NCBI RefSeq assembly: GCF_029232205.1
Contig: NZ_CP107255.1
Coordinates: forward strand, 810,001 to 842,000
DNA from: Candidatus Saccharimonadota bacterium
Lineage (GTDB): Archaea > Nanohalarchaeota > Nanosalinia > Nanosalinales > Nanosalinaceae
DNA length: 32,000 bases
Reading direction: 5' to 3'
Shown here piece by piece: positions 2,414 through 31,104 of the stretch. Within the stretch, counting starts at the first letter, position 1; each line of letters begins with the position of its first letter. Both the position numbers and the translations under genes were made by a program. The notes under the pieces are model-generated. The model was not told the DNA's origin and searched no databases. It saw nothing but the letters and a program-made list of their open reading frames with translations.

Positions 2414-2791
2414 ATGAAAGTTACAATAGGTACAACAAACGGCGACACATTTCAAACAGAAGTAGAAGACAATTCTCAACTAATCGGAAACGAAGTAGGA
2501 GACGAAATCGACGGAGGCCTCGTAGGAGTTCCAGGATACACACTGGAAATTACAGGAGGATCCGACAAAGCAGGATTCCCTATGAGAAAAAGCATCGAAG
2601 GATCCGAAAGAAAAAGAGTACTAATCGAAGACGGATCAGGAATCCAGGCAGAAGAAAAAGGAATCAAACAGAGAAAATCCGTCAGAGGCCGAACAGTATC
2701 AGGCCAGATCGAACAACTCAACACAAAAGTAGTAGAAGAAGGTAGCAAGTCCGTAGAAGAAATCCTTGAAGGAGACGAAGAGGAAGAATAA
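2414..2791 (+). CDS. rps6e: 30S ribosomal protein S6e (eS6)
   Basis: MKVTIGTTNGDTFQTEVEDNSQLIGNEVGDEIDGGLVGVPGYTLEITGGSDKAGFPMRKSIEGSERKRVL matches the S6e family. I prefer the ATG at 2414, preceded by GGTGA at 2401-2405, over the ORF-track start at 2264, whose extra 50 aa look non-coding. The C-terminus is acidic (EGDEEEE). Confidence 0.85.
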   Translation: MKVTIGTTNGDTFQTEVEDNSQLIGNEVGDEIDGGLVGVPGYTLEITGGSDKAGFPMRKSIEGSERKRVLIEDGSGIQAEEKGIKQRKSVRGRTVSGQIEQLNTKVVEEGSKSVEEILEGDEEEE

Positions 2792-2798
2792 AACAGCT

Positions 2799-3107
2799 AT
2801 GGGCCTGGTCACCGAGTACTACCTGTCCTCAGCACTGGAAGAGATAGAACACAGAAGCAACCAGTTAGACCAGTGGTGGGACAACTCCACAAGCAAGGAA
2901 TACATGGAGTCAATTCTTGACTACGACCTTGTAGAAGGAGAACCTGTCGAATACGAAGACAGATTCGGCGAAGTACGTGAAGGAGAGGTAGTAGATAGAA
3001 GGCCCATAACAAATCTTCTAACAGGTCTCAACCCAGAGAGCCCTACCATCTATAGCGTAGGCTCTGGGGGGAGAACTATAACTGTTTCCGAGGATGATAT
3101 ATTATGA
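2799..3107 (+). CDS. Hypothetical acidic protein (102 aa)
   Basis: The ORF lies between S6e and aIF2-gamma. The likely start is the ATG at 2799, 7 nt after the S6e stop. Its stop overlaps the aIF2-gamma start (ATGA at 3104-3107). I recognise no family. Confidence 0.5.
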
Positions 3108-4303: not shown

Positions 4304-4311
4304 TTTATATA
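4304..4311 (+). promoter_or_regulatory. TATA-like box (TTTATATA) upstream of the MscS-peptidase gene
   Basis: Centred about 26 nt upstream of the ATG at 4334. A GGAG/AGGT stretch at 4321-4329 could alternatively act as an SD on read-through transcripts from aIF2-gamma. Confidence 0.4.
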
Positions 4312-4333: not shown

Positions 4334-5896
4334 ATGGCCGGCATTCTAGATTCTGCACTAGCTTTCATCATGTCAAGCAACACCAGCATTAGAGTAGCAG
4401 TTACACTACTAATCCTAGTTCTAGGCCACCTCACAGTAAAAAGCTTCAACATGATCTACAACCGGCTATGGATACTCAGAAACGACGAATCCACCAAAAA
4501 AGACCTCGAAAGAAAAAGACAGAGACTACAGTACATATCATACATACTTGACGGCCTCGTCATAACAGGAGCCCTATTCTACCTAAACTCCTCAATGACC
4601 GATCAGATCATCACAGAAACAGCAACATACATCCCAGACATACTAACAGGATTTCTAGTAGCAATCCTAGGAGTAATAACAATAAACATATTCGCAAGAT
4701 TCATAGAGGACTTCCTCAAAACAGTTGGAGTCAGAAACTACTTCAGAGAAGCAGGCCTATCAGTAAACGCATTCAAAATAGTATCAACACTCATCAAAGG
4801 ATTCCTATACCTGATCCTACTACAAATAGTACTAGGCCAACTAGGAATCGCACAAAGCACAATCAACGAGCTAGTAACAGCATCATCATGGGCCGTAGCA
4901 TTCCTCATCGCAGGCCTCGTATTCTACGGATTTAAAGACCTGTTCAAGAACTTCGCAGCAGGAGTATACCTCAAGAACTCCAGAATAGTAAGGCCTGGCG
5001 AGGAAGTCAAGATGGACGATGAAACAGGAGAAATCAAGGAAGTATCGCTCTTCAGCACTACGGTCGACACAAACTCAGGTTTCACAGTGCTGGCACCGAA
5101 CAGCCAGATCATGGACTCAAACCTCAAGTTCAAGAGAACAAGAAGCGACCTCGACACGCTGGAAGAAATAACAAGCTACTTCGTAGCACAGGACCCATCA
5201 TTCTGCGGTCCAGCATCAATGGAAATGGCCCTCGAAATCTTCGGATACAGACACGACCAGAAAGAAATAGGAGAAAAAGCAAACGTCGAAGAAGGAGAAG
5301 GAGCCGACGAACACGTCCTAATGGACTCAGTAGAAGAACTAACAAACAACGAAGTCAAAACAGCATGGATCGGCTACGATGACATCACAGAACTTGACGA
5401 AGAATTCAAGGCCTGGTTCAACGACGGAGCACTAATCGTTCCGAACTTCTACAAACCAGAAATATTCCCAGATGCAACAGCAGGCCACTTCGTACTATCA
5501 GTCGGAGTAGAAGGAGATGAAATACTCATCCTTGATCCAAGTGGAACAAACGGAGGAGTATACTACGTAAACAAAGACCAGCTGAAAGAAGCAATGGCAG
5601 AGTTCGGCCACAAGAGAGGATACATCGTGGTCGCACCAAAAGGAACAACAGCACACTGGAGAATCAAGAACGACCTAATCTACGCAGACAAAAGCGCCTA
5701 CGACGAACTATCCAAGACACTGGAAGCCCGACTAAGAAAGATTCTAAGACAGGGCCGCATCCTGAAAAACTCCACACCTTCCTCAATGGAAGACTACATG
5801 GAGAAATGGGGCGCAAGCGAGAAATTAACACGAATATGGATGCCAGAACAATCAAAACAGGGGGAGGACAAAGATGAAACTACTGAAAATAACTGA
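4334..5896 (+). CDS. MscS-like mechanosensitive channel core fused to a C-terminal C39/papain-like cysteine peptidase domain
   Basis: The N-terminal half has several TM helices. It then shows the MscS TM3/beta-domain signature (AVAFLIAGLVFYGFKDLFKNFAAGVYL...RPGEEVKMDDETGEIKEVSLFSTTVDTNSGFTVLAPNSQIMDSNL). The C-terminal half carries Q-x5-C (VAQDPSFCGPASMEMALEIFGY) and a His/Asp motif (AGHFVLSVGVEGDEILILDPS), as in C39-like peptidases. Confidence 0.7.
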   Translation: MAGILDSALAFIMSSNTSIRVAVTLLILVLGHLTVKSFNMIYNRLWILRNDESTKKDLERKRQRLQYISYILDGLVITGALFYLNSSMTDQIITETATYIPDILTGFLVAILGVITINIFARFIEDFLKTVGVRNYFREAGLSVNAFKIVSTLIKGFLYLILLQIVLGQLGIAQSTINELVTASSWAVAFLIAGLVFYGFKDLFKNFAAGVYLKNSRIVRPGEEVKMDDETGEIKEVSLFSTTVDTNSGFTVLAPNSQIMDSNLKFKRTRSDLDTLEEITSYFVAQDPSFCGPASMEMALEIFGYRHDQKEIGEKANVEEGEGADEHVLMDSVEELTNNEVKTAWIGYDDITELDEEFKAWFNDGALIVPNFYKPEIFPDATAGHFVLSVGVEGDEILILDPSGTNGGVYYVNKDQLKEAMAEFGHKRGYIVVAPKGTTAHWRIKNDLIYADKSAYDELSKTLEARLRKILRQGRILKNSTPSSMEDYMEKWGASEKLTRIWMPEQSKQGEDKDETTENN

Positions 5897-6689
5897 CGAC
5901 AAAGACAACGAACAACTAGACCAGCATTTCGACGAAGTAGAAACAGTAAGCATAGAAGAAGTCGCACCAGAGGTAAGAGAAAACAAATCAGACGTAAAGA
6001 TTAACGGAAGATCAGTAGAACAGTTCGACGCGGTCTACGCGAACATACCTGAAAAGAACGCAGTCTTCGGCAGAGTCCTCCTGGAAGTAATAGAGGAAAA
6101 AGGAATCCCTCTGAACTACTCATCAACCTCATTCTTCGCAATGTCAAAGAAAAACTATCTTTACAGCGTGCTGCACGAGAAAAAAGTATCAGCCCCTAAA
6201 ACAGCAGTTATTGCAGACGAAAAATCCGCCAGAAACCTGGAAAACTATCTGAAAGGGCCTCTAGTCGCCAGAAAATTCGAAGGCTTCGAAGAATCAGAGG
6301 AGAAAAAAATAGATACTGTAGAAGATATCAGCGGATTCACTGAAGGAGTTGAATACGGAGAACAGTTCGTACTCTTCCAAGAATTCTCCAAAGGCAGCAA
6401 ATATCGATGCCTGATAGCTGACAACGAAGTAGTATCCCTAGAAGACAACTCAGAGGAATGGTCGATAGGAAAAGACAACCTGCGGTACTCAAACATTCCT
6501 AGCGACATAGAAGAACTGGTAATAGATGCAAAAAACTCTCTAGGCTTCAAAACTGCAGAAGTACTCGTAAGAGACGAAGAAGTGATAGACGTTAATCCAA
6601 ATCCAGATCTGGACATGTACGCAGAAATATCAGGAAAAGACGTATACAAAATCGTGGCAGAAGCAATGAAGGATGGAGCAGAAGAGTAA
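5874..6689 (+). CDS. Divergent RimK-like ATP-grasp paralog, possibly catalytically degenerate
   Basis: 271 aa, colinear with the next gene (FDAVYANIPEKNAVFGRVLLEVIEEKGIP.. versus FDAAYVRTNDEDALFSEHLVEVLNKAGV..). The glycine-rich ATP loop is replaced by KFEGFEESEEKK and the R-x-N-x3-GG motif is missing. It overlaps the upstream gene by 23 nt. Confidence 0.6.
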   Translation: MKLLKITDDKDNEQLDQHFDEVETVSIEEVAPEVRENKSDVKINGRSVEQFDAVYANIPEKNAVFGRVLLEVIEEKGIPLNYSSTSFFAMSKKNYLYSVLHEKKVSAPKTAVIADEKSARNLENYLKGPLVARKFEGFEESEEKKIDTVEDISGFTEGVEYGEQFVLFQEFSKGSKYRCLIADNEVVSLEDNSEEWSIGKDNLRYSNIPSDIEELVIDAKNSLGFKTAEVLVRDEEVIDVNPNPDLDMYAEISGKDVYKIVAEAMKDGAEE

Positions 6690-6691
6690 AA

Positions 6692-7573
6692 ATGAAACTT
6701 GCAATAATATACGGCGATGTATCAACAACACACCAGCTGATTATCGAGGAGGCCGAAGAAATATTTGACTCCGTGCTTGCAGCACCGGTAGACGGCCTTA
6801 AAATGATACACAGCGAAGAAGGAAGCAAAGTACTTTACAAAGATACTGACCTTACAGAGTTCGACGCGGCCTACGTAAGAACCAACGACGAGGACGCGCT
6901 TTTCTCCGAGCACCTTGTAGAAGTACTGAATAAGGCCGGAGTAGTTACGCAGGCAGAGGACGAGTCCTTCTCCTACTCAAACAACAAGTTCTACAGCATG
7001 AAAATCCTGGCAGAGAACAACGTAAACGTACCCGACAGTTTCTACACTCTCTCACCTGAGACAGCAGTCGATGCAGCAGAAGAATTGGGCTACCCTATCA
7101 TCATGAAGACGATCGAGGGAGCAGGAGGCCAGGGAGTAATGAGGGCAAGCTCAGAGAACGAGCTGAAACCTGTTATGGACACAATGAAGTCTTTCGAACA
7201 GGACATCTGCCTCCAGGAATATCAGGAACACGGCGGAACCGACACAAGAGTCATCGTCATAGGCAACGAAATATACGCATACAGCAGATCAAGCAACGGC
7301 GACGAATGGAGATCCAACCTCGCAGCAGGCGGAGAAAGAAAAGAAGCCGACATAACACCAGAAATGAGAGAAGCAGCCCTCACAGCAGTAAGGGCCTCAG
7401 GATTCGACATCGCAGGAGTCGACGTAATCGAAACCGACAACGGAGTCTACGTACTGGAACTAAACAGTGCGTTCGGCCTCTACAAAGCAATAAACGAGAC
7501 AGTAGGCGACAACGTAATCCTCAGACTGGTAGAAAGAATGCATGAACGAGCGATGGAGGCGAACCAGAGTTGA
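6692..7573 (+). CDS. RimK-family ATP-grasp alpha-L-glutamate ligase-like protein
   Basis: 293 aa with GYPIIMKTIEGAGGQGV (Gly-rich loop), CLQEY, TDTRVIVIGNEIYAYSR, EWRSNLAAGGE and AGVDVIETDNGVYVLELNSAFG. These are canonical RimK-type ATP-grasp motifs. Confidence 0.85.
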   Translation: MKLAIIYGDVSTTHQLIIEEAEEIFDSVLAAPVDGLKMIHSEEGSKVLYKDTDLTEFDAAYVRTNDEDALFSEHLVEVLNKAGVVTQAEDESFSYSNNKFYSMKILAENNVNVPDSFYTLSPETAVDAAEELGYPIIMKTIEGAGGQGVMRASSENELKPVMDTMKSFEQDICLQEYQEHGGTDTRVIVIGNEIYAYSRSSNGDEWRSNLAAGGERKEADITPEMREAALTAVRASGFDIAGVDVIETDNGVYVLELNSAFGLYKAINETVGDNVILRLVERMHERAMEANQS

Positions 7574-8601
7574 AAGCAGGCCTCGAACTGGAGTTCTGGG
7601 TCATCGACGAACAAGGAGAACTTGACTACGCCAAGCCCGTCGCAGAAAGAGTATACTTCGCATCACAGGAATTCTCACGGTCAATGATAGAAATACAGAC
7701 AGAACCACACGAAGATGTAGAAGAACTATTGAAAGAGGCAATCTCCAAGACAGAGATACTTGCAGAACTAGCCAAGAAAGACGGCAAACGAATAGTACCT
7801 CTTGGAACACCTCTAAACTCAGGAAAAGTAGAAGTATACGAATCTGAGAGATTCCAGATAGAACAGGAAGTAATAGGCCACGAAGTAAAACACGCAGGAA
7901 GAACAGCAGGCCTCCACATCCACTTCGAAAAAGAAGACTCACTACGACAGCTGAACACTCTAACAGCTCTAGACCCTTTATCCGCACTAATGAACTCCTC
8001 ACCACGGTATCAGGGGAAAGATCTTGCAGATGGATGCAGAAACCAGGTATACAGGCACAAGGCCTGCGGAGCATTCCCAGAACAGAGAGAACTCTGGCCC
8101 TACATGGACTCAATCACCGAATGGCGGGAGAAAAGAGAAAAACTGTTTGAAAAATTCGAGAAAGAAGCAGAGAAAAAAGGAATAAAGCCAGAAAAATTTG
8201 AAAGATTCTTCCAGCCAGAGAACGCAGTCTGGACACCCGTAAAACTGAGAGAAAACTATCCAACAGTTGAATGGCGCGCACCAGACACAGCACTCCTGAC
8301 AGAAGTAATCAAAATAGTAAAAGCCGTCAAACCGATAGTCCAGAAAAAGAAGAGATCAGAACTACCAGACTTCAAAGAAGTCAAACAGGCCTCAGAAAAA
8401 GCAATAACTCAAGGCCTCGAATCCAGAGAAGTCAGAGAATACATCGAAAAAATGGGCGCAGATCCTTCAGATTTCTCACCTATGTCACAGCAACTTGATC
8501 TACCGGAAAAAGTCAGCAGAGAAGAAGCCCGAGAAATAAGACTGGACGTAGCGGAAAAATTGACAGAAGACCTGGAAGAAGCAAAAGAAATGATAGGTTA
8601 A
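7570..8601 (+). CDS. GCS2/YbdK-family carboxylate-amine ligase (glutamate-cysteine ligase family 2)
   Basis: 343 aa with GLELEFWVID, MIEIQTEP and TAGLHIHF motifs. TTG at 7570 is the only canonical start that retains the conserved N-terminus; the upstream in-frame stop is at 7543-7545. GGAGG lies at 7555-7559. It overlaps the RimK stop by 4 nt. Confidence 0.75.
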   Translation: MKAGLELEFWVIDEQGELDYAKPVAERVYFASQEFSRSMIEIQTEPHEDVEELLKEAISKTEILAELAKKDGKRIVPLGTPLNSGKVEVYESERFQIEQEVIGHEVKHAGRTAGLHIHFEKEDSLRQLNTLTALDPLSALMNSSPRYQGKDLADGCRNQVYRHKACGAFPEQRELWPYMDSITEWREKREKLFEKFEKEAEKKGIKPEKFERFFQPENAVWTPVKLRENYPTVEWRAPDTALLTEVIKIVKAVKPIVQKKKRSELPDFKEVKQASEKAITQGLESREVREYIEKMGADPSDFSPMSQQLDLPEKVSREEAREIRLDVAEKLTEDLEEAKEMIG

Positions 8602-9515
8602 AGCTGTTTAAAGGCCTCAACCAGCGCATCCATCACAGGCACTAACTGCTGCTTCATCTCCTCATCACCGTAGAAACCGATTCCCGGCTTCGAATTCAAC
8701 TCAACAATCCACGGCCTTCCATTCTCATCAAAGAACAGATCAACCGAGAAAAGACAGGGCCTGTACTCAAGCTCATCATTCACAGTTTCTATAATCTCCA
8801 GGGCCTGTTCCGGAAAATCCTCAGGACTGACAGCGTGCTGAGAACCTCCCTGCGAGACATTGCTTATCTCGCCATCACTGTACCGAACATAACCGGCCTT
8901 CAGCTCTCCATTCACAACAATACCTCGGAGATCATGAGTGCCTTCAACAATGCCCTCGATTCCCGCACTGCTATCGATAAATCTCTGGACGATATAATCC
9001 TCTTCTATCTCCGGTAAATCTTCCTCATCATCTACGATATGTATTCCTTTACCACCGAAAGCATAGCACGGCTTTAACACAATTTTACCGTACTCCTCCA
9101 GCATCTCACGCACATTCTCCTCCGAAAAAGGCCTAGTCTCCGGCATCATCTCCAGAAATCTTTCATAAGTCAACAACTTATCCTTGCAGAGCTCCTCAAG
9201 CTCAGGATCATTCAAAATTCCAATCTCATTATTGATCTCCTTCTTGAGGGCCTTAGTCTCTTCATCAAAGTGGAACTTGTCGAAAACACCATCAAGCTCC
9301 ACATTCTCTACCTTGCTCCAGAAACCATCTTCATACACCCATCCCCTGGAAAGAGAACCGTCCTCATACCAGTGGTACTGGGCCTGAACAAGCCTCACAC
9401 CTTGATCTCTGGCCCTTTCCGAGAAGTAGCCGTACGCCTCATTTGTTTGGCCATCGAAAGGTTTTTCTCCATCCCAGGTAACTTCCTCATCCCAGAGAAC
9501 TCCAATAGTCTTCAT
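8598..9515 (-). CDS. ATP-grasp ligase (YheC/D- or TTL-like), apparently active
   Basis: 305 aa with IVLKPCYAFGGKGIHIV, YIVQRFI, HDLRGIVVNGELKAGYVRYSDGEISNVSQGGS and FSVDLFFDENGRPWIVELNSKPG. It is convergent with the GCS2 gene, and the two stop codons overlap in TTAA (8598-8601). Confidence 0.75.
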   Translation of the reverse strand: MKTIGVLWDEEVTWDGEKPFDGQTNEAYGYFSERARDQGVRLVQAQYHWYEDGSLSRGWVYEDGFWSKVENVELDGVFDKFHFDEETKALKKEINNEIGILNDPELEELCKDKLLTYERFLEMMPETRPFSEENVREMLEEYGKIVLKPCYAFGGKGIHIVDDEEDLPEIEEDYIVQRFIDSSAGIEGIVEGTHDLRGIVVNGELKAGYVRYSDGEISNVSQGGSQHAVSPEDFPEQALEIIETVNDELEYRPCLFSVDLFFDENGRPWIVELNSKPGIGFYGDEEMKQQLVPVMDALVEAFKQL

Positions 9516-9954: not shown

Positions 9955-10058
9955 AAATTGTCGTCAACCTGTTAAATGTTCCACAGAGGTAGAAGACTAT
10001 AGGGCGCTGAGCCCTCCACAACCTCAGTTTTCTACCAAAAATGGAGGTAGTGTCTCAA

Positions 10059-10631
10059 ATGTACAAAAGAAAAACAATTCAAGAATCAGTAAGAGTTCCC
10101 CCAGAACATCTGGGAGAGAACCTGGAAGAAAGCGTCACAGAAGGCCTTAAAGCAGAAACAGAAGGAAACATTGATCCTGAAGTAGGAGTAGTACTTGCAA
10201 TCGAAGAAGTTAACTCCGTAGAAGGAGGAGAAATCGAGCCTGAAGACGCAGGAGTACACTACGACGTAGAATACTCAGCACTTGTATTTGAACCAGAGCT
10301 TCACGAAGTAGTATTCGGAGAAGTAGTCGACGTCACAAGCTTCGGAGCATTCATCCGTATCGGTCCGTTCGACGGCCTATGCCACGTCAGTCAGGTAATG
10401 GACGAATACGTCAACCACGACGAAGAAAACGGAATGCTTGTATCCGAAGAAAACCAGTTCACACTCGAAGACGGAGACGTCGTAACAGCAAGAATAATCG
10501 CAGTAAGCCTTGGAAAAGAGGACACCAATAAGATCAACCTGACAATGAGACAGCCAGGCCTCGGAAAAGAAGAATGGGTAGAACAGTACGAGGAAGAACA
10601 GGAAGCAGAAGACGAAGAAGGTGAAGAATAG
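10059..10631 (+). CDS. rpo7: DNA-directed RNA polymerase subunit E' (Rpo7)
   Basis: MYKRKTIQESVRVPPEHLGENL... N-terminus plus an S1 domain (GEVVDVTSFGAFIRIGPFDGLCHVSQV). I prefer the ATG at 10059, with GGAGGT at 10043-10048, over the ORF-track start at 10041. Confidence 0.9.
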   Translation: MYKRKTIQESVRVPPEHLGENLEESVTEGLKAETEGNIDPEVGVVLAIEEVNSVEGGEIEPEDAGVHYDVEYSALVFEPELHEVVFGEVVDVTSFGAFIRIGPFDGLCHVSQVMDEYVNHDEENGMLVSEENQFTLEDGDVVTARIIAVSLGKEDTNKINLTMRQPGLGKEEWVEQYEEEQEAEDEEGEE

Positions 10632-20332: not shown

Positions 20333-23188
20333 TTACTGAAAAACAAGACTCTTTATCTTGGAGGAGGAAAGGCCTCCAGCATACACTCTTAACTCGTCAA
20401 CAGCGCCATCGTAATTTCTGGTGACAGTGATCTTCTGACTGGAAACAGTATCTGAAAAGGCCTTACTTGCGACTTTTTCTCCACCAACATACAAGGAGAT
20501 AGAAGAGCCATTGTAGACTGCTGAAATCTTATTCCATTTCTCAAAAGGCCTCTCAAACCTCAAAAATTCATCATTTACTTCGAAGACTGCCTCGGACTCT
20601 GACATTGATAGAGAAATATTATCGGAATGGACAATTTCAGGCCTGGCCTGTTCCTCACCTATACTTACTGAAGGTGTTGGCTCAACGTACTTTCTTATCT
20701 TGATGTTTCTAACCCAGTGATAATTATTTGCGCCACCAGTTCTTGCTCCAAAACCAAAGTAATTACCTATATTAAAGTTGGAGTAGGCCTGAACACCTGA
20801 AGTCTGGTTGCCAAGAGTTTGAAGTTTGAAATGAAGTTTACTTCCGTTCCTGTAACCGTATGCTGACGCAGTCTCCCATTGATTTGTCCTAGGGTTTTTA
20901 TTGAAGCTGCCGAAGTTACCGCACTGCGTATTATTTCCGACACCGATACAGTTATCGTGATCATTCAATATCCAGGACAAAGCATTGCCATCAACATCTT
21001 CAGTACTAGGAATACCTGAAGCCCAGCTGTAAAGCCATAGAGCATCAGCATCAGTACCGTTACCGATGTAGTAATCCCAGGAGGCCTTCCAGCCAGGTTG
21101 TGGAGTTCCCTGAGAGTAGTTGAGAGATCCTCTCTGGCCATCAACATTAGCGGTTAACTCCACATACTCCTCCTCTTGATTGTAATTAGCATCATTAGTC
21201 AGTGTTCCATCATAGCCCGATCCAAACAGATCGTAAACATAGTAGGCCTTCTCAGGATTCTCTCCTGCCGTCGCCTCGCTTCCATAATACATCCATATTC
21301 TGGTCTTCTCACCGGCAGGAAGGCTGTCAACCTCAACAACAACCTCTGTAGAATCAGTATTACAGCCTGAAACCACGTCATGATACAGGCGAGAACCCTC
21401 CAGAGAATAGAACCTGAGATCAGAGCAATCAGACCTCATCTTCCCATCCTGAACTAGAGACGCAGTATCAACCGTAAAGTTAACCTGATAGTTACTCAGA
21501 TCCTGGCCCGAACCCTCCTGAACGGAAACCGACTTACGGTACTCAAAAAGCAGATCATCCCAATCAGAAGAAGGTTCAGCCCACGCAGAAAAAGTGAAAT
21601 TATCCTGTATCGATCTCCCTGTAGAAATATTCCGAGAAGCACCAGGACCAAGAGAACCCGAACTCAAAACCCCTTCAGCAGAAAAACCAGCAGAATCATA
21701 GGCCTCCTTTCTGTTCCCCGACTCAAAATCCCATCTACCCACCAGGCCTTCAGAAACACTCTCTCCATTATAGAGAGACTGAATCTCAGAAGAAGTAAGT
21801 GAACGTCTATACACGCGAGCATCATCGATCCTGCCATCAAACCAGCCATTATTCTTATCTCGAACCCCTATGAAAAGATCCTGAGTGCTCCCTGCCAAGG
21901 CCATCTGCGTAGTTGAAGACTCCATTACCCCATCCACATACATCTTCATTCTACTACCATTCCAAGTACCCACAATATGATGCCAAGACCCGTCAGCAAC
22001 CATTGTATTACCGCGCAACTCAGTATGCCCCTTATTCAATTTGCCTGCATAAACACCAAACTCCGGCTCACCGTTCTCAACCGTGATCCTGTAACCCTCA
22101 TCATCACTATCCTGCGTATCAATTATACCTCTAGTATCAGAGCTATTATCTGTTTTGACCCAAGCTGACAAAGTCAGCTCCGACCTGATTTTAAGCCAGG
22201 GACTATTCTCTACTCTAACTCTGTCATCCTCGCCATCAAACATCAGCGCATGATCACCAACTTTGCCAGAAACCCAGCCGCTAGAAGAATTATAATCAAA
22301 ATTCTCTAAATCGCCGTTCAGGCCTCCAGAAAACCAGTTAAGGCCTTGACTACCAGCATAAGTTTTGACAGAAGGCCTGTTAACAGGAGTTTCCTTCACC
22401 CATCCGCTTCCTGTATCTAAATTGTTGTCGTCGAAGTTTCTTGGCTCGGCTGTCCCAGAAGTTGCTTTATCGCTAAGACATTTTTGAGAGGTGGTTACGT
22501 CGCAGCCTAAAGGGCCTTCATTGAAGCTATAGTACCTTACTAGAGATTTTTGTGTAGCAAATTGCTCATTGTAGATACTTTCAATTTGAGAACTGTTTAG
22601 GCCTTCGCTGTACACTCTCACATCATCAATATAGCCATCCCAAGGATGTGTGACTCCTCCTTCATATTCGGAACCAATAGTTAATCTTTCGGTATTGTTC
22701 CTCAACAACTCATCCGGAGAGTCAAAGGTATTAAGCAGAGATCCATTATAGAAAATTTTCATGTGAGTGCCATTAAGAGAGACCGCAATATGCTGCCATC
22801 TTCCTGTTTCAATAACCCTATCAGAATCCCAGTTTAATCTACCGCTTCCTTCAAAGCCGAAAACCACGTGAAACTCTCCATTATCTCTAGTAAAGAGCTC
22901 AAAAACATCAGTAGAGGATTCGCTTGCACCTCCTTTCTGTAATACAGTTATACCTGACTTCTGACGCGGATAAACCCAAGCAGAATAAGTAATCTCATCT
23001 GAAACATTCATTGAACGTGTACTTTTCTGATCAACCAAAACATAATCATCACTACCATCGAACTCCAGACTGTAGCCACGAGAAACCTGAGGATCATCAA
23101 ACCTCCAGTATCCTTCGAGCTGGGCCGCAGAAGACCCGGCAAATGCCAGGAGTATAGCTGCAAAAATTACTGCTTTTGAGGAGTTCAC
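20333..23188 (-). CDS. Large secreted multi-lectin protein: repeated LamG/concanavalin-like domains, a DUF2341-like domain and an L-type-lectin-like domain
   Basis: 951 aa with a GTG start and a signal peptide (MNSSKAVIFAAILLAFAGSSAAQ). Recurrent LamG C-terminal motifs are present (DDVRVYSEGLNSSQIESIYN, DDARVYRRSLTSSEIQSLYNG, VDELRVYAGGLSSSKIKSLV). There is a DUF2341-like block (YRKSVSVQEGSGQDLSNYQVNFTVD...CSDLRFYS). There is also a legume-lectin-like block (ADALWLY...GFGARTGGANNYHWVRNI). Confidence 0.75.
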   Translation of the reverse strand: MNSSKAVIFAAILLAFAGSSAAQLEGYWRFDDPQVSRGYSLEFDGSDDYVLVDQKSTRSMNVSDEITYSAWVYPRQKSGITVLQKGGASESSTDVFELFTRDNGEFHVVFGFEGSGRLNWDSDRVIETGRWQHIAVSLNGTHMKIFYNGSLLNTFDSPDELLRNNTERLTIGSEYEGGVTHPWDGYIDDVRVYSEGLNSSQIESIYNEQFATQKSLVRYYSFNEGPLGCDVTTSQKCLSDKATSGTAEPRNFDDNNLDTGSGWVKETPVNRPSVKTYAGSQGLNWFSGGLNGDLENFDYNSSSGWVSGKVGDHALMFDGEDDRVRVENSPWLKIRSELTLSAWVKTDNSSDTRGIIDTQDSDDEGYRITVENGEPEFGVYAGKLNKGHTELRGNTMVADGSWHHIVGTWNGSRMKMYVDGVMESSTTQMALAGSTQDLFIGVRDKNNGWFDGRIDDARVYRRSLTSSEIQSLYNGESVSEGLVGRWDFESGNRKEAYDSAGFSAEGVLSSGSLGPGASRNISTGRSIQDNFTFSAWAEPSSDWDDLLFEYRKSVSVQEGSGQDLSNYQVNFTVDTASLVQDGKMRSDCSDLRFYSLEGSRLYHDVVSGCNTDSTEVVVEVDSLPAGEKTRIWMYYGSEATAGENPEKAYYVYDLFGSGYDGTLTNDANYNQEEEYVELTANVDGQRGSLNYSQGTPQPGWKASWDYYIGNGTDADALWLYSWASGIPSTEDVDGNALSWILNDHDNCIGVGNNTQCGNFGSFNKNPRTNQWETASAYGYRNGSKLHFKLQTLGNQTSGVQAYSNFNIGNYFGFGARTGGANNYHWVRNIKIRKYVEPTPSVSIGEEQARPEIVHSDNISLSMSESEAVFEVNDEFLRFERPFEKWNKISAVYNGSSISLYVGGEKVASKAFSDTVSSQKITVTRNYDGAVDELRVYAGGLSSSKIKSLVFQ

Positions 23189-29097: not shown

Positions 29098-31104
29098 CTA
29101 GCCTTTTAGAGAAACAGGAAAACCAACAACCCTGGTCTCATACTCTCCTCCCTCTCCAGCAGCATTGAACCTGTACTCATCGGCCAGATCCAGCAATTCT
29201 TCTATATTTTCTTCATCAAGAACTTCTCCTTCCCACTCCTCAGTAAGGCCTCGTGCCGCAACAGAAGTAATTTCAACTTTGAAACCTTCACGAATCAGCC
29301 ACTTCATATACCGGGCCTGGTCCTCCTGCCAGAGCGGAGTAAACACTTTCAGGCCTACCCTATCAGCTAGTTTATCTACTCTATCTCTCTGGTACGTCGA
29401 AGCCAGTGCTCCAGCAACTACTCCTTCAACATTGTACTCTTCACGGGCTTTTTCTAGGCCTTTCCGCAGATCCTCCAGTTCAACCTCTTTCTCACCTTCA
29501 GTCTCCTGAACAAGCAACGGAATTCCAAGTTTCTCCGACTGCTCGTCTAAATGGCCGCGAGACTTCTTCGAGTCAAACATGTAGCTGTCCTTATTCTCCG
29601 ACCTCAAAGTCAGAAGACATGAAATTTTATTATTCCTGCGCTGAATTCTGTAAAGCGCGGCGTTGGAGTCTTTACCACCAGAAGTCAGGGCCACAACCCT
29701 GTTATTTGGTTTTCGTTGAAGATCAGAGATCTTCTGCGATCCAGAAAATCCTCGATTTTCGGATTCGCGTAGAGAATTAAGGTATTCCTGTTTGTGATCA
29801 AATCCTTTGTCGCGTGAAAGCCTGTCGATCGCCTTATCAAAATTGCTGCCGTACTGGGCCGCAGTCTTACCTCTCCACGCCACCTTCTCCGGCACGCCCA
29901 GTTTTTCAGCGGCCTTCCGCAACACATACTTCCTGTAATCATCTTTCACCTTGTACTCTTCCGGGATCGTCAATGCATGTTCAATCAAGTCGTGATCAAG
30001 GAATGGAAGCCTGAGCTCTCGGCCATTACGGAAACTGATAACGTTATCACGGTAGAGATCTCTTTCAAATATCCCTCGAAGGCCTGAAAGACACTCCTTA
30101 TTCAGATATCCTTGCTGACGGTGATAGCCAGCGTAAAGCTGCTCGCTACCTAGGCCAGAAAACACGACTTGCTCGTTATCCTGATTCTTCTGCAATGCAA
30201 AGTGGAAAGGCAGGGCCACACCGTTCTTGACTACGGAGGTAGATGAAATCCAGTCAACGATTTCAGGCAAAACCTCTTCCACTTCTTCAAGACTGGCTTC
30301 GTAGGCCTCAAGTTCGATATCCATTTCCTCGGCAATTTCCTGGGCCCAGTCCATGTCACGCGGCGCATTAACATTTCCATGTTGAATGCCTGCAGTATAA
30401 GCGGTGAAACCCTTATCAAGTTCTTGCAGAGCCGCAGCAATAAGAGTAGAATCGACACCACCAGAGAACAGAAGGCCTACATCTCCTTCAGGAACCCTCT
30501 TCTTCACGGCCCCTAGGAACTTCTCCTTTATCTCTTCAGCAGCTTGATCAATCTCTATGGCCTCTTTCACATCTATTTCAAAGAATTCTCTCTGCTGGAA
30601 AGAAACTTCATCTTCCTCAATATCATATCTAAGTATTCTGCGAGGATGTAGTTCTCGACACTCCAAACCTTCTTTTTCCAAGGCCTGTCTCTCCGATGCA
30701 AAAACAAACTCTTCATCAGAGTACCAGACAGGATTGACTCCGAGAACATCTCTTGCAATTATAATTTCACCATCTTTCAGGTATGCAAATGCGTAGATGC
30801 CGTCAACCTCTTCAAGGCCTTCCACACCTTTCTCATCAAGCAGCTTAAGGAGTGTTTCAGCATCGTTTTCTGTCTCCCAGCCGTATTTTTCGTTCAACTC
30901 TTTCCAGTTGTATATTTCGCAGTTAGCGGAGAGAAGGCCTTTATCCTCGATAGGTTGGGAAAGTTCTCCAACTACTGAGTGAAGGTAGTGGCCTATAGCA
31001 AAGTTTTCTATTTCAACTGTTTCACAGGAGCTGCCTCTGTGACTTAGATGCTGATTCAGGGCCTTTACTGTTTCCCTGTTTTTTGCTCCTGTTATTCCGC
31101 ACAT
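29098..31104 (-). CDS. Fusion protein: class-II glutamine amidotransferase + asparagine-synthetase-like PP-loop domain + C-terminal Dph6/MJ0570-like (diphthine-ammonia ligase family) PP-loop ATPase
   Basis: 668 aa. The N-terminus has MCGI (Cys2 nucleophile), NCEIYN, DGIYAFAY and ARDVLGVNPVWY. The middle has LLFSGGVDST. The last ~215 aa carry VVALTSGGKDSNAALY, VEGVVAGALASTYQRDRVDKL, VFTPLWQ and GEGGEYETRVV, typical of the MJ0570/Dph6 family. Confidence 0.8.
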   Translation of the reverse strand: MCGITGAKNRETVKALNQHLSHRGSSCETVEIENFAIGHYLHSVVGELSQPIEDKGLLSANCEIYNWKELNEKYGWETENDAETLLKLLDEKGVEGLEEVDGIYAFAYLKDGEIIIARDVLGVNPVWYSDEEFVFASERQALEKEGLECRELHPRRILRYDIEEDEVSFQQREFFEIDVKEAIEIDQAAEEIKEKFLGAVKKRVPEGDVGLLFSGGVDSTLIAAALQELDKGFTAYTAGIQHGNVNAPRDMDWAQEIAEEMDIELEAYEASLEEVEEVLPEIVDWISSTSVVKNGVALPFHFALQKNQDNEQVVFSGLGSEQLYAGYHRQQGYLNKECLSGLRGIFERDLYRDNVISFRNGRELRLPFLDHDLIEHALTIPEEYKVKDDYRKYVLRKAAEKLGVPEKVAWRGKTAAQYGSNFDKAIDRLSRDKGFDHKQEYLNSLRESENRGFSGSQKISDLQRKPNNRVVALTSGGKDSNAALYRIQRRNNKISCLLTLRSENKDSYMFDSKKSRGHLDEQSEKLGIPLLVQETEGEKEVELEDLRKGLEKAREEYNVEGVVAGALASTYQRDRVDKLADRVGLKVFTPLWQEDQARYMKWLIREGFKVEITSVAARGLTEEWEGEVLDEENIEELLDLADEYRFNAAGEGGEYETRVVGFPVSLKG

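Follow-up and report, generated by a model that had tools for sequence, protein, structure and literature searches.

In the RimK-RimB(-RimA) system of S6 glutamylation in Pseudomonas and E. coli, the gene for a RimK-type ligase is accompanied by one for a peptidase, the retropepsin RimB, able to trim the ligase product. The rloABC genes of P. aeruginosa encode RloB, a 7TM protein whose transglutaminase domain is inactive, RloC, a RimK-like ATP-grasp enzyme, and RloA, a secreted retropepsin; the RloA peptidases are required for survival of hypo-osmotic stress. RimK-like ligases also act on N-blocked acidic amino acids, yielding NAGGN in bacteria (Ngg/AsnO) and NAAG in mammals (RIMKLA/B, aspartoacylase), dipeptides that serve as osmolyte or signal and whose metabolism includes an AspA-type deacylase. 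RimK itself makes free poly-alpha-glutamate, and RimB is its dedicated trimming protease (PMC11957051).

The window analyzed here, 32,000 nucleotides from Candidatus Nanohalovita haloferacivicina, contains a cassette for which no earlier description seems to exist; its hosts, the Nanohaloarchaeota, are very small halophilic archaea that live as symbionts. The cassette consists of g1 (4334-5896, plus strand, 520 aa), g2 (5874-6689, plus, 271 aa), g3 (6692-7573, plus, 293 aa), g4 (7570-8601, plus, 343 aa, TTG start) and the convergent g5 (8598-9515, minus, 305 aa). Open reading frames, profile searches and reading of the sequence agreed with an earlier note on all five genes, their domain families and junctions: a 23-nt overlap joins g1 and g2, 2 nt separate the g2 TAA from the g3 ATG, the g3 TGA overlaps the g4 TTG by 4 nt, and g4 and g5 have overlapping stop codons in common (TTAA). 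GGAGG-like motifs are located 8-13 nt upstream of g2 and of g4, and an archaeal TATA-box-like motif, TTTATATA (4304..4311, plus), which lies 23-30 nt upstream of the start codon of g1, is likely to be the promoter of a g1-g4 transcription unit. Profile searches assigned MS_channel_2nd and Peptidase_C39_2 to g1, RimK to g3, GCS2 to g4, and ATPgrasp_YheCD to g5, the matches of g2 being sub-threshold.

The cassette resembles RimK-RimB in that no motif is lost where g3 is aligned to E. coli RimK; however, its peptidase is of the papain-like cysteine type and is carried on an MscS-like channel, and the archaeal host adds an obligatory pseudo-RimK (g2) as well as GCS2 and YheC/TTL-like ligases (g4 and g5). 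To our knowledge, bS6 is absent from archaea. With rloABC it shares a membrane protein bearing a papain-like-fold domain, sometimes inactive, beside a RimK-related ATP-grasp and a peptidase, and the hypo-osmotic role of RloA matches the MscS module; but the RloB domain is periplasmic on 7TM, while that of g1 is predicted to be cytoplasmic on MscS and active in most lineages, and the membrane parts show no sequence relationship. Similarity to NAGGN and NAAG synthesis is an analogy only, as g3 and g5 match the NAGGN synthetase model weakly (27 and 22 bits, cut-off 569) and the cassette has no GNAT domain. Finally, related cassettes pair TTL-like ATP-grasps with PF08014 or M14-like (AstE/AspA) hydrolases, as do the tubulin tail enzymes (TTL/TTLL, MATCAP, M14 CCP); this is a family-level likeness, a tubulin-like target being absent and the window containing no MATCAP-like or AstE-like genes.

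The N-terminal half of g1 (4334..5125, plus, aa 1-264), defined by profile match and MscS alignment, is a membrane domain of 4-5 TM helices that includes a pore helix of MscS type (…NFAAGVYL…) as well as the beta-domain. It matches Pfam MS_channel_2nd at aa 202-264 (38.5 bits, cut-off 20.2), aa 108-264 align with residues 31-175 of E. coli MscS (E 3e-7), and hydropathy peaks at aa 17-35, 103-121, 149-167 and 180-204. In the place of the cytoplasmic alpha/beta domain of MscS stands a papain-like cysteine-peptidase domain (5156..5653, plus, aa ~275-440; profile and structure matches) with residues Gln286, Cys291 (the sole cysteine in g1), His385 and Asp401; as it follows the cytoplasmic beta-domain, homology with MscS places it inside the cell. 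The earlier description of this domain as C39/papain-like holds at the profile level (Peptidase_C39_2, 28.5 bits, cut-off 24), but its structure is nearest to phytochelatin synthase, ahead of C39. For the AlphaFold model of the domain (pLDDT 80-94), the best Foldseek PDB match is the Nostoc phytochelatin synthase Alr0975 (E 4e-8), followed by PeiR and then by the C39 domains of PCAT1/ComA (E 1e-5 to 1e-6). The top structure is the glutathione acyl-enzyme of Alr0975, a primitive, glutathione-cleaving phytochelatin synthase, which also tops the sequence-profile matches; Pfam Phytochelatin itself is matched weakly (16.4 bits, below the cut-off of 24.9). The resemblance of the domain to phytochelatin synthase at least equals that to C39. 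The ABC transporters PCAT1/ComA likewise carry a papain-like peptidase with Q/C/H/D residues on the cytoplasmic side of a translocation device; however, their identity to the g1 domain is 14-16%, less than that of phytochelatin synthase, g1 is an MscS-type channel instead of an ABC exporter, and a double-glycine precursor gene is absent. The domain cannot simply be an export protease that removes leader peptides: besides being predicted cytoplasmic and nearest to a glutathione-cleaving enzyme, it is catalytically dead, judged by its residues, in about a third of lineages. Export through the MscS pore is conceivable.

The g3 product is, by its motifs, an intact ATP-grasp enzyme of the RimK family and alpha-L-glutamate ligase type: it matches Pfam RimK (E 1e-36), TIGR00768 (157 bits, over the cut-off of 143) and E. 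coli RimK structures (110 bits, every RimK motif aligned). RimK models give only sub-threshold matches to g2 (TIGR00768, 43 bits, the same cut-off), and profile-profile alignment of g2 with the g3 family by hhalign gives 99.5% probability across 257 columns. In this comparison the glycine-rich loop of g2 is gone (GGxGV to EESEE), Lys is replaced by Arg, and neither the RSN…GG motif nor the Asp Mg ligand remains. These changes mark g2 as a full-length, catalytically degenerate RimK paralog, and it is predicted to be a probable pseudoenzyme partner of g3. A word-indexed search found 165 homologs of g2, nanohaloarchaeal wherever named.

The g4 product matches GCS2 (57.9 bits, cut-off 21) and, under the cut-off of 176, the YbdK subfamily model (67 bits), and falls far short of the cut-offs for all glutamate-cysteine ligase models. 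The motifs GxExE, HxHF and R..YR are invariant across eight aligned orthologs. The product is a divergent carboxylate-amine ligase of the GCS2/YbdK superfamily, and its gene occupies a lineage-variable slot. By bringing together GCS2 (g4), two ATP-grasp enzymes (g3 and g5) and a Cys-His-Asp domain like that of phytochelatin synthase, the window recalls the enzymes of glutathione and phytochelatin synthesis, namely gamma-glutamylcysteine ligase, ATP-grasp glutathione synthetase and papain-like phytochelatin synthase, which belong to these three superfamilies; but g3 is of the RimK type, not GshB, and most nanohaloarchaeal cassettes have no GCS2 gene, which was found in only nine loci. The g5 product matches ATPgrasp_YheCD (62 bits, cut-off 26.8) and TTL (33.8 bits), and its translation retains an intact Lys/Gly-rich loop as well as the Mg motif D…ExN. 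YheC/TTL-like genes of this type occur in 1-3 copies in many loci, and g5 groups with copies that adjoin a MATCAP-like gene elsewhere.

Across the phylum, every slot downstream of g1-g2-g3 is filled with a further ligase-like gene, namely GCS2, one to three g5-type genes, or an uncharacterized P-loop protein. Often it also contains a gene for a MATCAP-like protein (PF08014, 33-37 bits, cut-off 27; HExxH retained in 9/9) or for an AstE/AspA-like carboxypeptidase/deacylase (E 1e-20 to 1e-24). The P-loop protein shows a generic SIMIBI fold only. Its bacterial homologs (36% identity, E 1e-52) are encoded inside arginine operons (argG-X-argC-argD-argF-argB), and in other cases the gene overlaps that of an M20 deacylase; from this distant operon context we infer a role in the metabolism of N-blocked glutamate.

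Conservation was analyzed in 46 nanohaloarchaeal species loci. The cassette is present in every sampled nanohaloarchaeal genome, and g1-g2-g3 are contiguous in all 40+ loci long enough to show them, nearly always overlapping one another (median junctions: g1/g2 -26 nt, g2/g3 -4 nt). The five-gene cassette of the earlier note is thus retained in its core, while GCS2 and the convergent ATP-grasp gene vary between lineages; what is conserved is g1-g2-g3, followed by a ligase/peptidase slot of varying content. The comparison of neighborhoods likewise found the core adjacent across Nanohaloarchaeota, but when haloarchaea and other DPANN were compared, the g1 fusion protein was found in Nanohaloarchaeota only; by the less sensitive word-indexed search, the same is true for the g2 family. 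The catalytic state of g1 covaries with the slot. All 24 loci that have a GCS2 or P-loop gene keep the Gln-Cys-His-Asp tetrad of g1 intact, and in 19 of the 20 loci whose only slot ligases are g5-type the tetrad has decayed by at least 3-4 different substitution routes (Fisher p 1.4e-11, uncorrected and ignoring phylogeny).

Our tentative explanation is that the cassette serves to make and to trim a short acidic (glutamyl) peptide with a cap, which the channel domain cleaves or senses, possibly for osmoadaptation. In this scheme g3, probably in complex with the pseudoenzyme g2, would extend a carboxylate acceptor, provided or capped by the slot enzyme, with alpha-linked glutamate(s): in the window, g4 would form a gamma-glutamyl-type amide and g5 would attach one more residue, and in other lineages the P-loop enzyme may fill the slot role. 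This would yield a small oligo-glutamyl compound with an N-cap, comparable to glutathione, NAAG or NAGGN; in the potassium-loaded cytoplasm it would function as organic anion or osmolyte. The phytochelatin-synthase/C39-like domain, hanging from the channel in place of the MscS cage domain, would bind this product and, given an intact Cys-His site such as that in the window, cleave or transpeptidate it, coupling its level or release to membrane tension. A small-molecule product is favored by the match of the g1 domain to the Alr0975 glutathione acyl-enzyme, by the arginine-operon homologs of the P-loop protein, by the poly-alpha-glutamate cycle of RimK and RimB, and by the rlo operon, where similar parts are paired and RloA is needed under hypo-osmotic stress. 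It is also favored because known GCS2 enzymes join free amino acids and AstE/AspA enzymes hydrolyze N-acyl amino acids. Several points count against this explanation or limit it. First, RimK, TTL and MATCAP are best known as editors of protein C-termini, not as small-molecule enzymes. Second, Nanohaloarchaeota are regarded as salt-in organisms dependent on KCl, and we know of no organic osmolyte in them, which speaks against an osmolyte. Third, since the g1 domain is dead in some lineages, cleavage by it is not essential everywhere, and the rarity of GCS2 means that a gamma-glutamyl cap is not general.

The main rival, which we consider rather unlikely, is editing of protein C-terminal tails: g3, with g2 as an adaptor, and g5 would add Glu or other residues to an acidic C-terminus, that of the channel itself, of ribosomal protein S6e or of another acidic-tailed protein, and the g1 peptidase, or MATCAP-like/AstE-like enzymes in other lineages, would remove them. 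Such a system would be a prokaryotic equivalent of RimK-RimB, or of the TTL/TTLL-MATCAP/CCP cycle on tubulin, and might tune channel gating or translation. It agrees with the S6-glutamylating E. coli RimK being the best solved relative of g3, and with the TTL match of g5, whose nearest paralogs stand head-to-head with MATCAP-like metallopeptidase genes. MATCAP is present exactly where the g1 peptidase is dead, as expected if a trimming activity was replaced; on the other hand, the nearest structural relative of that peptidase cleaves a tripeptide, and GCS2, the P-loop protein and AstE/AspA suggest small-molecule chemistry. S6e, encoded two genes upstream of the cassette, has an 18-aa acidic extension ending in EE in most nanohaloarchaeal loci examined, but acidic C-termini are common in the host proteome, RpoE' being another example. 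Nearly all very short g1 tails with a final E/D belong to dead-peptidase variants, yet in many cases tail length and peptidase state do not go together. In the window, the acidic disordered tail of g1 with its stop codon (EQSKQGEDKDETTENN, 5849..5896, plus; sequence reading) shares its last 23 nt with the start of g2 in another frame; as the tail motif is encoded inside this overlap, the g2 N-terminus may account for its conservation. Translation and transcription genes surround the cassette, with TrkH, S6e and aIF2-gamma upstream and PIN, RpoE', Spt4 and S24e downstream in nearly all loci; these are syntenic phylum-wide, however, and the ribosomal genes are not demonstrably operon members.

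It is improbable that g3 and g5 glutamylate a non-peptide carboxylate, be it on a cofactor, on a lipid head-group or on a precursor of the cell envelope, in the manner of MptN, CofF or the methylofuran enzymes, and that the enzyme-like domain of the g1 channel has a regulatory function unrelated to this. That RimK-family enzymes can act on cofactors is well established in archaea, and g3 scores comparably with MptN (130 bits), LysX (128 bits) and S6-RimK (115 bits), all below the equivalog cut-offs; but nanohaloarchaeal genomes are reduced and are not known to encode synthesis of methanopterin, F420 or similar cofactors, and both the covariation of the g1 tetrad with the slot and the recurrent recruitment of carboxypeptidase-like genes would be left unexplained.

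Very unlikely, too, is that unrelated genes are adjacent merely through high local synteny. Since the flanks keep their order as well, gene order alone is weak evidence and does not single out the cassette. Nevertheless, internal overlaps (23-29 nt and 4 nt) are conserved, while the spacer between aIF2-gamma and g1 is positive in every locus compared (median 43 nt); SD-like motifs precede internal genes; the sole variable position repeatedly gains enzymes of one functional theme; and the catalytic residues of g1 decay as its content changes. Tight coupling, phylum-wide conservation and this covariation support the functional linkage proposed in the earlier note.

A RiPP or graspetide-like pathway, in which the ATP-grasps macrocyclize a ribosomal precursor and the C39-like domain cuts a double-glycine leader during export, is scarcely credible: PCAT transporters, whose fused C39-type domains have that role, are among the structural matches, and many g1 tails have G or GG ahead of the acidic stretch, but the ligases are of RimK, YheC and GCS2 types, the graspetide maturase model is matched at 26 bits (cut-off 350), a pore of MscS type is no exporter of peptides, and the peptidase is dead in many lineages retaining the ligases. 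As noted earlier, a precursor ORF has no space (spacers of 39 nt and 55 nt, the other junctions overlapping or nearly abutting), so that a non-ribosomal peptide or protein-tail modification is likelier.

Between the peptidase domain and the tail, g1 has a helical extension (5654..5848, plus, aa 441-505) seen in no family but the fusion. It is conserved in the family alignment, with numerous invariant columns and the motifs …TTAHWRIKNDLIYADK…RLRKILRQGRILKN…TRIWxP, and is modeled by AlphaFold with low confidence.

The five genes of the cassette occupy exactly the positions claimed in the earlier note: g1 (4334-5896, forward strand, 520 amino acids), coding for an MscS-like channel joined to a papain-like domain; g2 (5874-6689, forward), coding for a degenerate RimK paralog; g3 (6692-7573, forward), coding for an intact RimK-type ligase; g4 (7570-8601, forward), coding for a GCS2-type ligase; and g5 (8598-9515, reverse), coding for a YheC/TTL-like ATP-grasp protein. 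The junctions claimed there were confirmed by reading the sequence: the TGA of g1 ends 23 nt past the ATG of g2, the TAA of g2 is followed after 2 nt by the ATG of g3, the TTG start of g4 overlaps the TGA of g3 by 4 nt, and g4 and the convergent g5 have overlapping stops in a common TTAA. Profile searches (Pfam, NCBIfam) bore out the families of g1 (MscS-like and C39_2), g3 (RimK), g4 (GCS2) and g5 (YheC/TTL). GGAGG-like motifs are present upstream of g2 and g4, and a TTTATATA box is located 23-30 nt upstream of g1. A scan for sigma-70 promoters and terminators gave no enrichment over shuffled sequences, as expected for an archaeon. The locus is reproduced in a Logan contig. In a Logan assembly of the same organism (L001, 2389-3578), the aIF2-gamma gene is called as two genes of 221 and 136 amino acids, probably because of an assembly frameshift; the window copy is intact.

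The channel half of g1 matches PF00924 (pore-lining TM3 and beta-domain; 38.5 bits against a Pfam cut-off of 20.2), and its residues 108-264 align to residues 31-175 of E. coli MscS (TM1-TM3 and the beta-domain, E 3e-7). No match to g1 was found past MscS residue 175, that is, in the cytoplasmic alpha/beta domain and C-terminal beta-barrel of MscS; in g1 the papain-like domain, together with a helical extension, takes the place of the vestibule region. From these alignments g1 is predicted to be an MscS-like channel, with a predicted cytoplasmic enzyme domain because MscS topology places it there.

The papain-like domain has the oxyanion Gln and the catalytic triad (Gln286, Cys291, His385 and Asp401 in the window protein), a Q-C-H-D tetrad that is lost in about a third of g1 homologs. 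On the proposed C39/papain-like assignment the profiles are divided: PF13529 (C39_2) scores above its cut-off (28.5 bits against 24), PF03412 (C39) just misses its own (21.8 bits against 22), and PF05023 (Phytochelatin, C83) falls well below (16.4 bits against 24.9); the best structural match lies outside the C39 domains. A structural model built on 12 homologs (pLDDT 80-94 within the enzyme domain) had 2bu3, 6th5 and 2btw as its best Foldseek matches in the PDB (E 4e-8, 21-23% identity, TM about 0.6). These top matches are Nostoc Alr0975, a primitive phytochelatin synthase, including its glutathione acyl-enzyme, and the predicted fold and catalytic-triad geometry of g1 are Alr0975-like. PeiR and then the C39 domains of PCAT1/ComA (14-16% identity) came next in the Foldseek order, and Alr0975 was also the best PDB profile match (E 0.015). 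The arrangement differs from that of C39 exporters, in which the domain is fused to an ABC transporter and a double-glycine leader substrate is encoded nearby: the membrane part of g1 is MscS-like, and neither the cassette nor its borders in the window leave room for a small ORF. The enzyme domain is followed by a conserved helical extension of about 65 amino acids and then by a disordered acidic tail. The conserved terminal motif of g1, DE-x-[ST]-E-[DN]-N, is specified by its final 23-29 nt (5874-5896 in the window, and the corresponding junctions elsewhere). Read in another frame, this stretch also gives the conserved g2 N-terminus M-K-L-L-K-I-T, and the tail motif may be a frame by-product of the g2 overlap.

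The four ligase genes differ in how closely they follow known families. First, g3 scores 157 bits against TIGR00768 (cut-off 143), and its Lys, GGxGV loop, QEY, RSN..GG and D…ExN motifs all align with E. coli RimK (110 bits), which identifies it as a predicted bona fide RimK-family ligase; it reaches none of the equivalog models tested (S6-RimK, MptN, LysX and CofF), and the assignment is at the family level. Second, g2 is a full-length paralog of g3 (hhalign 99.5%, 257 columns) that attains 43 bits against the 143 of TIGR00768. Acidic residues replace its Gly-rich loop, and the Lys, the RSN..GG motif and the Mg-binding Asp are lost; these changes uphold its description as degenerate and mark it as a predicted pseudoenzyme. 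Third, g4 contains a GCS2 domain (57.9 bits against 21 in Pfam) with GxExE, HxHF and R..YR invariant in eight aligned orthologs. It falls below the models for the YbdK subfamily (TIGR02050, 67 bits against 176) and for glutamate-cysteine ligases (26-51 bits against 332-409), it has no match among PDB sequences, and is classified as a putative divergent GCS2 member. Finally, g5 matches PF14398 (62 bits against 26.8) and PF03133 (33.8 bits against 20.1), and its translation has an intact Lys/GGKG loop and D…ELN motif, as predicted for a YheC/D-TTL-like ATP-grasp enzyme.

In total, 218 homologs of g1 were detectable; among the 120 matches listed, nearly all were about 500-530 amino acids long, and all were nanohaloarchaeal where named. 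Scanning a single genome for each GTDB species yielded 46 loci, all nanohaloarchaeal except one evidently mislabelled record. This record (L031, JBLGBK010000004.1), from a GenBank MAG labelled Colwellia polaris, has the complete cassette on a contig typical of nanohaloarchaea and was probably mislabelled or mis-binned. An exhaustive HMM search of 1.84 billion representative proteins with the C-terminal module of g1 gave 62 strong matches, all of them the same fusion or its fragments, and none of the fusion outside Nanohaloarchaeota; the weaker matches were generic stand-alone C39_2 or phytochelatin-synthase proteins. By a less sensitive, word-indexed search, g2 was also found only in Nanohaloarchaeota. 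Of the five genes, whose co-occurrence the earlier note proposed to check, g1-g2-g3 are contiguous in every locus long enough to show them (median junctions of -26 nt for g1/g2 and -4 nt for g2/g3, with +43 nt upstream of g1), whereas g4 and g5 vary by lineage.

The flanks are syntenic too, with TrkH, S6e and aIF2-gamma on one side and PIN, RpoE', Spt4 and S24e on the other; therefore, gene order alone proves little, and the cassette appears to have entered a string of housekeeping genes once, in an ancestor. A CDC123-like link to the neighbouring aIF2-gamma gene (the idea comes from PMC4431377) was rejected, as g2 is a RimK paralog and the adjacency is phylum-wide synteny. The S6e protein (2264-2791, forward) has an acidic C-terminal extension of about 18 amino acids, with EE, EEE or EEEE ends in most loci examined; Pyrococcus S6e stops right after …NVKLV, and the poly-acidic end of RpoE' (10041-10631) is similar. 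A 113-aa ORF between S6e and aIF2-gamma (2766-3107, forward) has no Pfam match and is probably a lineage-specific insertion, since the position is empty in Nanosalina-type loci.

The region between g3 and the PIN gene forms a variable slot. In the clade of the window it contains g4 and g5, and in some other loci only g4. A third type has between one and three g5-type genes, accompanied in nine loci by a gene for a MATCAP-family metallopeptidase that exceeds the PF08014 cut-off and retains HExxH. In the Nanosalina clade, and in Nanoanaerosalina, Asbonarchaeum and QJJ as deep branches, the slot instead has a gene for an uncharacterised 345-aa protein with an N-terminal beta-domain and a SIMIBI P-loop domain. 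This P-loop gene adjoins a gene for an AstE/AspA-like zinc hydrolase in five loci. The MATCAP-like, P-loop and AstE/AspA-like families have no member in the window. The MATCAP (DUF1704) genes are head-to-head with a TTL/YheC-like ATP-grasp gene (L013, L021, L023, L024, L028, L031, L040, L041 and L045), so that the archaeal slot pairs the two families that run the eukaryotic tubulin tyrosination cycle. For the P-loop protein, searches with Pfam, NCBIfam and PDB profiles, and with Foldseek on a high-confidence model, led no further than generic SIMIBI matches, namely HypB, SRP/FtsY, dethiobiotin synthetase and a short P-loop stretch of DUF1611. Its bacterial homologs (36% identity, E 1e-52; L051 4438-5601, L052 5638-6729 and L053 6001-7023) are translationally coupled in arginine operons of the order argG-X-argC-argD-argF-argB-argE, or overlap a gene for an M20 deacylase. 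By analogy, the family may supply a missing glutamate-capping step comparable to that of ArgA. Literature searches on MATCAP/DUF1704 and DgcN/DUF1611 found nothing on this topic.

The state of the g1 tetrad follows the content of the slot. It is intact in all 24 loci with a GCS2 or P-loop gene in the slot and degenerate in 19 of the 20 with g5-type ligases only, including all nine with MATCAP (Fisher p 1.4e-11, uncorrected for phylogeny). The degenerate patterns (DSED, ESQD, ETQD, EAQD, ESGD, KTHD, QNSD, ECED, QCND and ESRD) fall into at least 3-4 separate lineages of a neighbor-joining tree of g2 and g3. Since they differ between separate lineages, they indicate what appears to be repeated decay after a shift of the slot, and not one inherited lesion. 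This covariation is our strongest evidence, and it suggests that the enzyme domain of g1 and the slot enzymes act on the same molecule, as well as that MATCAP-like peptidases take over upon the death of the cysteine peptidase. The dead g1 domains are still well conserved, which suggests a persisting binding role. The pattern can be regarded as a natural experiment that points to the partners sharing a substrate.

As to the nature of this substrate, we favor, tentatively, a short capped oligo-glutamyl compound that would be made by the cassette and cleaved or sensed by the g1 domain, with an osmoadaptive role. Several observations point this way. A small molecule is suggested by Alr0975, the closest structural match to the g1 domain, which cleaves glutathione, a tripeptide. 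The substrates ligated by known GCS2 enzymes are free amino acids, those hydrolysed by AstE/AspA enzymes are N-acyl amino acids, and the P-loop homologs sit in contexts (argG-argC, M20) of N-blocked glutamate metabolism. Moreover, RimK itself produces free poly-alpha-glutamate and is opposed by a protease devoted to this (PMC11957051). Among described systems, the rlo operon of P. aeruginosa comes closest to a channel-anchored version. Its products are a RimK-like ATP-grasp, a retropepsin and a membrane protein whose papain-like-fold domain is inactive, and the RloA peptidases are required under hypo-osmotic stress (PMC11957051). No retropepsin-like RimB gene, as in RimK-RimB systems, was found in the cassette or its flanks, and bS6, the target in those systems, is not known from archaea.

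The main rival, which we consider rather unlikely, is editing of protein C-termini in the style of RimK or of TTL/MATCAP, with S6e and the channel's own tail as candidate targets. In most of the nanohaloarchaeal loci examined, the acidic extension of S6e (18 aa) has EE as its end. Very short g1 tails ending in E or D are enriched among the dead-peptidase variants, which also speaks for such editing, but the association has many exceptions, and the conserved tail motif overlaps the g2 start in another frame. For these two reasons the idea that the acidic tail serves g3 or the peptidase of g1 itself as a substrate or pseudo-substrate was set aside, and it is retained only as part of this tail-editing reading. 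Improbable in our estimate is a new kind of mechanosensitive device, in which seven g1 enzyme domains would form the channel vestibule. They would bind an enzymatically made acidic oligopeptide, provided by the slot ligases and the co-translated pseudo-RimK/RimK pair, and cleave it, and membrane tension would then control the breakdown or release of this peptide osmolyte or counter-ion. If true, this would be an osmoregulatory principle not yet known from salt-in organisms, one that arose a single time, in the nanohaloarchaeal ancestor. A RiPP or graspetide was rejected because no precursor ORF was found in or next to the cassette, in agreement with the earlier reading, and maturase models remain far below cut-off (TIGR04187, 26 bits against 350).

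Operons of amidoligases and peptidases are of a known kind, examples being RimK-RimB, rlo and the glutathione/phytochelatin systems. The cassette is a real, coherent feature, and four of its properties appear to be new: the fusion of MscS with an enzyme, the constant pairing of RimK with a pseudo-RimK, a slot in which ligases of unrelated superfamilies replace one another, and the coupled decay of the peptidase. A description of the cassette was not found in the searchable literature, the 2009 survey of amidoligase neighbourhoods aside, or in titles and abstracts on mechanosensitive channels in nanohaloarchaea, and no literature linking Nanohaloarchaea with RimK was found; the survey, by Iyer et al., reportedly predates nanohaloarchaeal genomes. 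As far as we found, no MscS channel has been described before in which an enzyme stands where the cytoplasmic cage would be.

The nanohaloarchaeal genome measures about 1 Mb, and these archaea are dependent on haloarchaeal hosts. Even so, every sampled lineage keeps this module of three to seven genes at the same place, with g1 found in no other group and g2 seen only here. A module with this distribution likely meets a need that defines the lineage, for instance in osmotic or ionic homeostasis, or in controlling translation or the channel. The analysis also offers a testable role for prokaryotic MATCAP (DUF1704) homologs and, as a side result, brings to light the P-loop family of bacterial arginine operons. 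Co-cultures exist for several nanohaloarchaea, which opens the predictions to tests with mass spectrometry and by heterologous expression.

Two other genes in the window encode large proteins. The first (29098-31104, reverse strand; 668 amino acids) combines glutamine amidotransferase and asparagine synthase (E 6e-40) with a C-terminal Dph6-type diphthamide synthase (E 2e-51), and may be a glutamine-dependent diphthamide synthetase. The second (20333-23188, reverse strand; 951 amino acids) contains three laminin-G/concanavalin-A-like lectin repeats and DUF2341, and looks like a large surface protein, as expected in an ectosymbiont.
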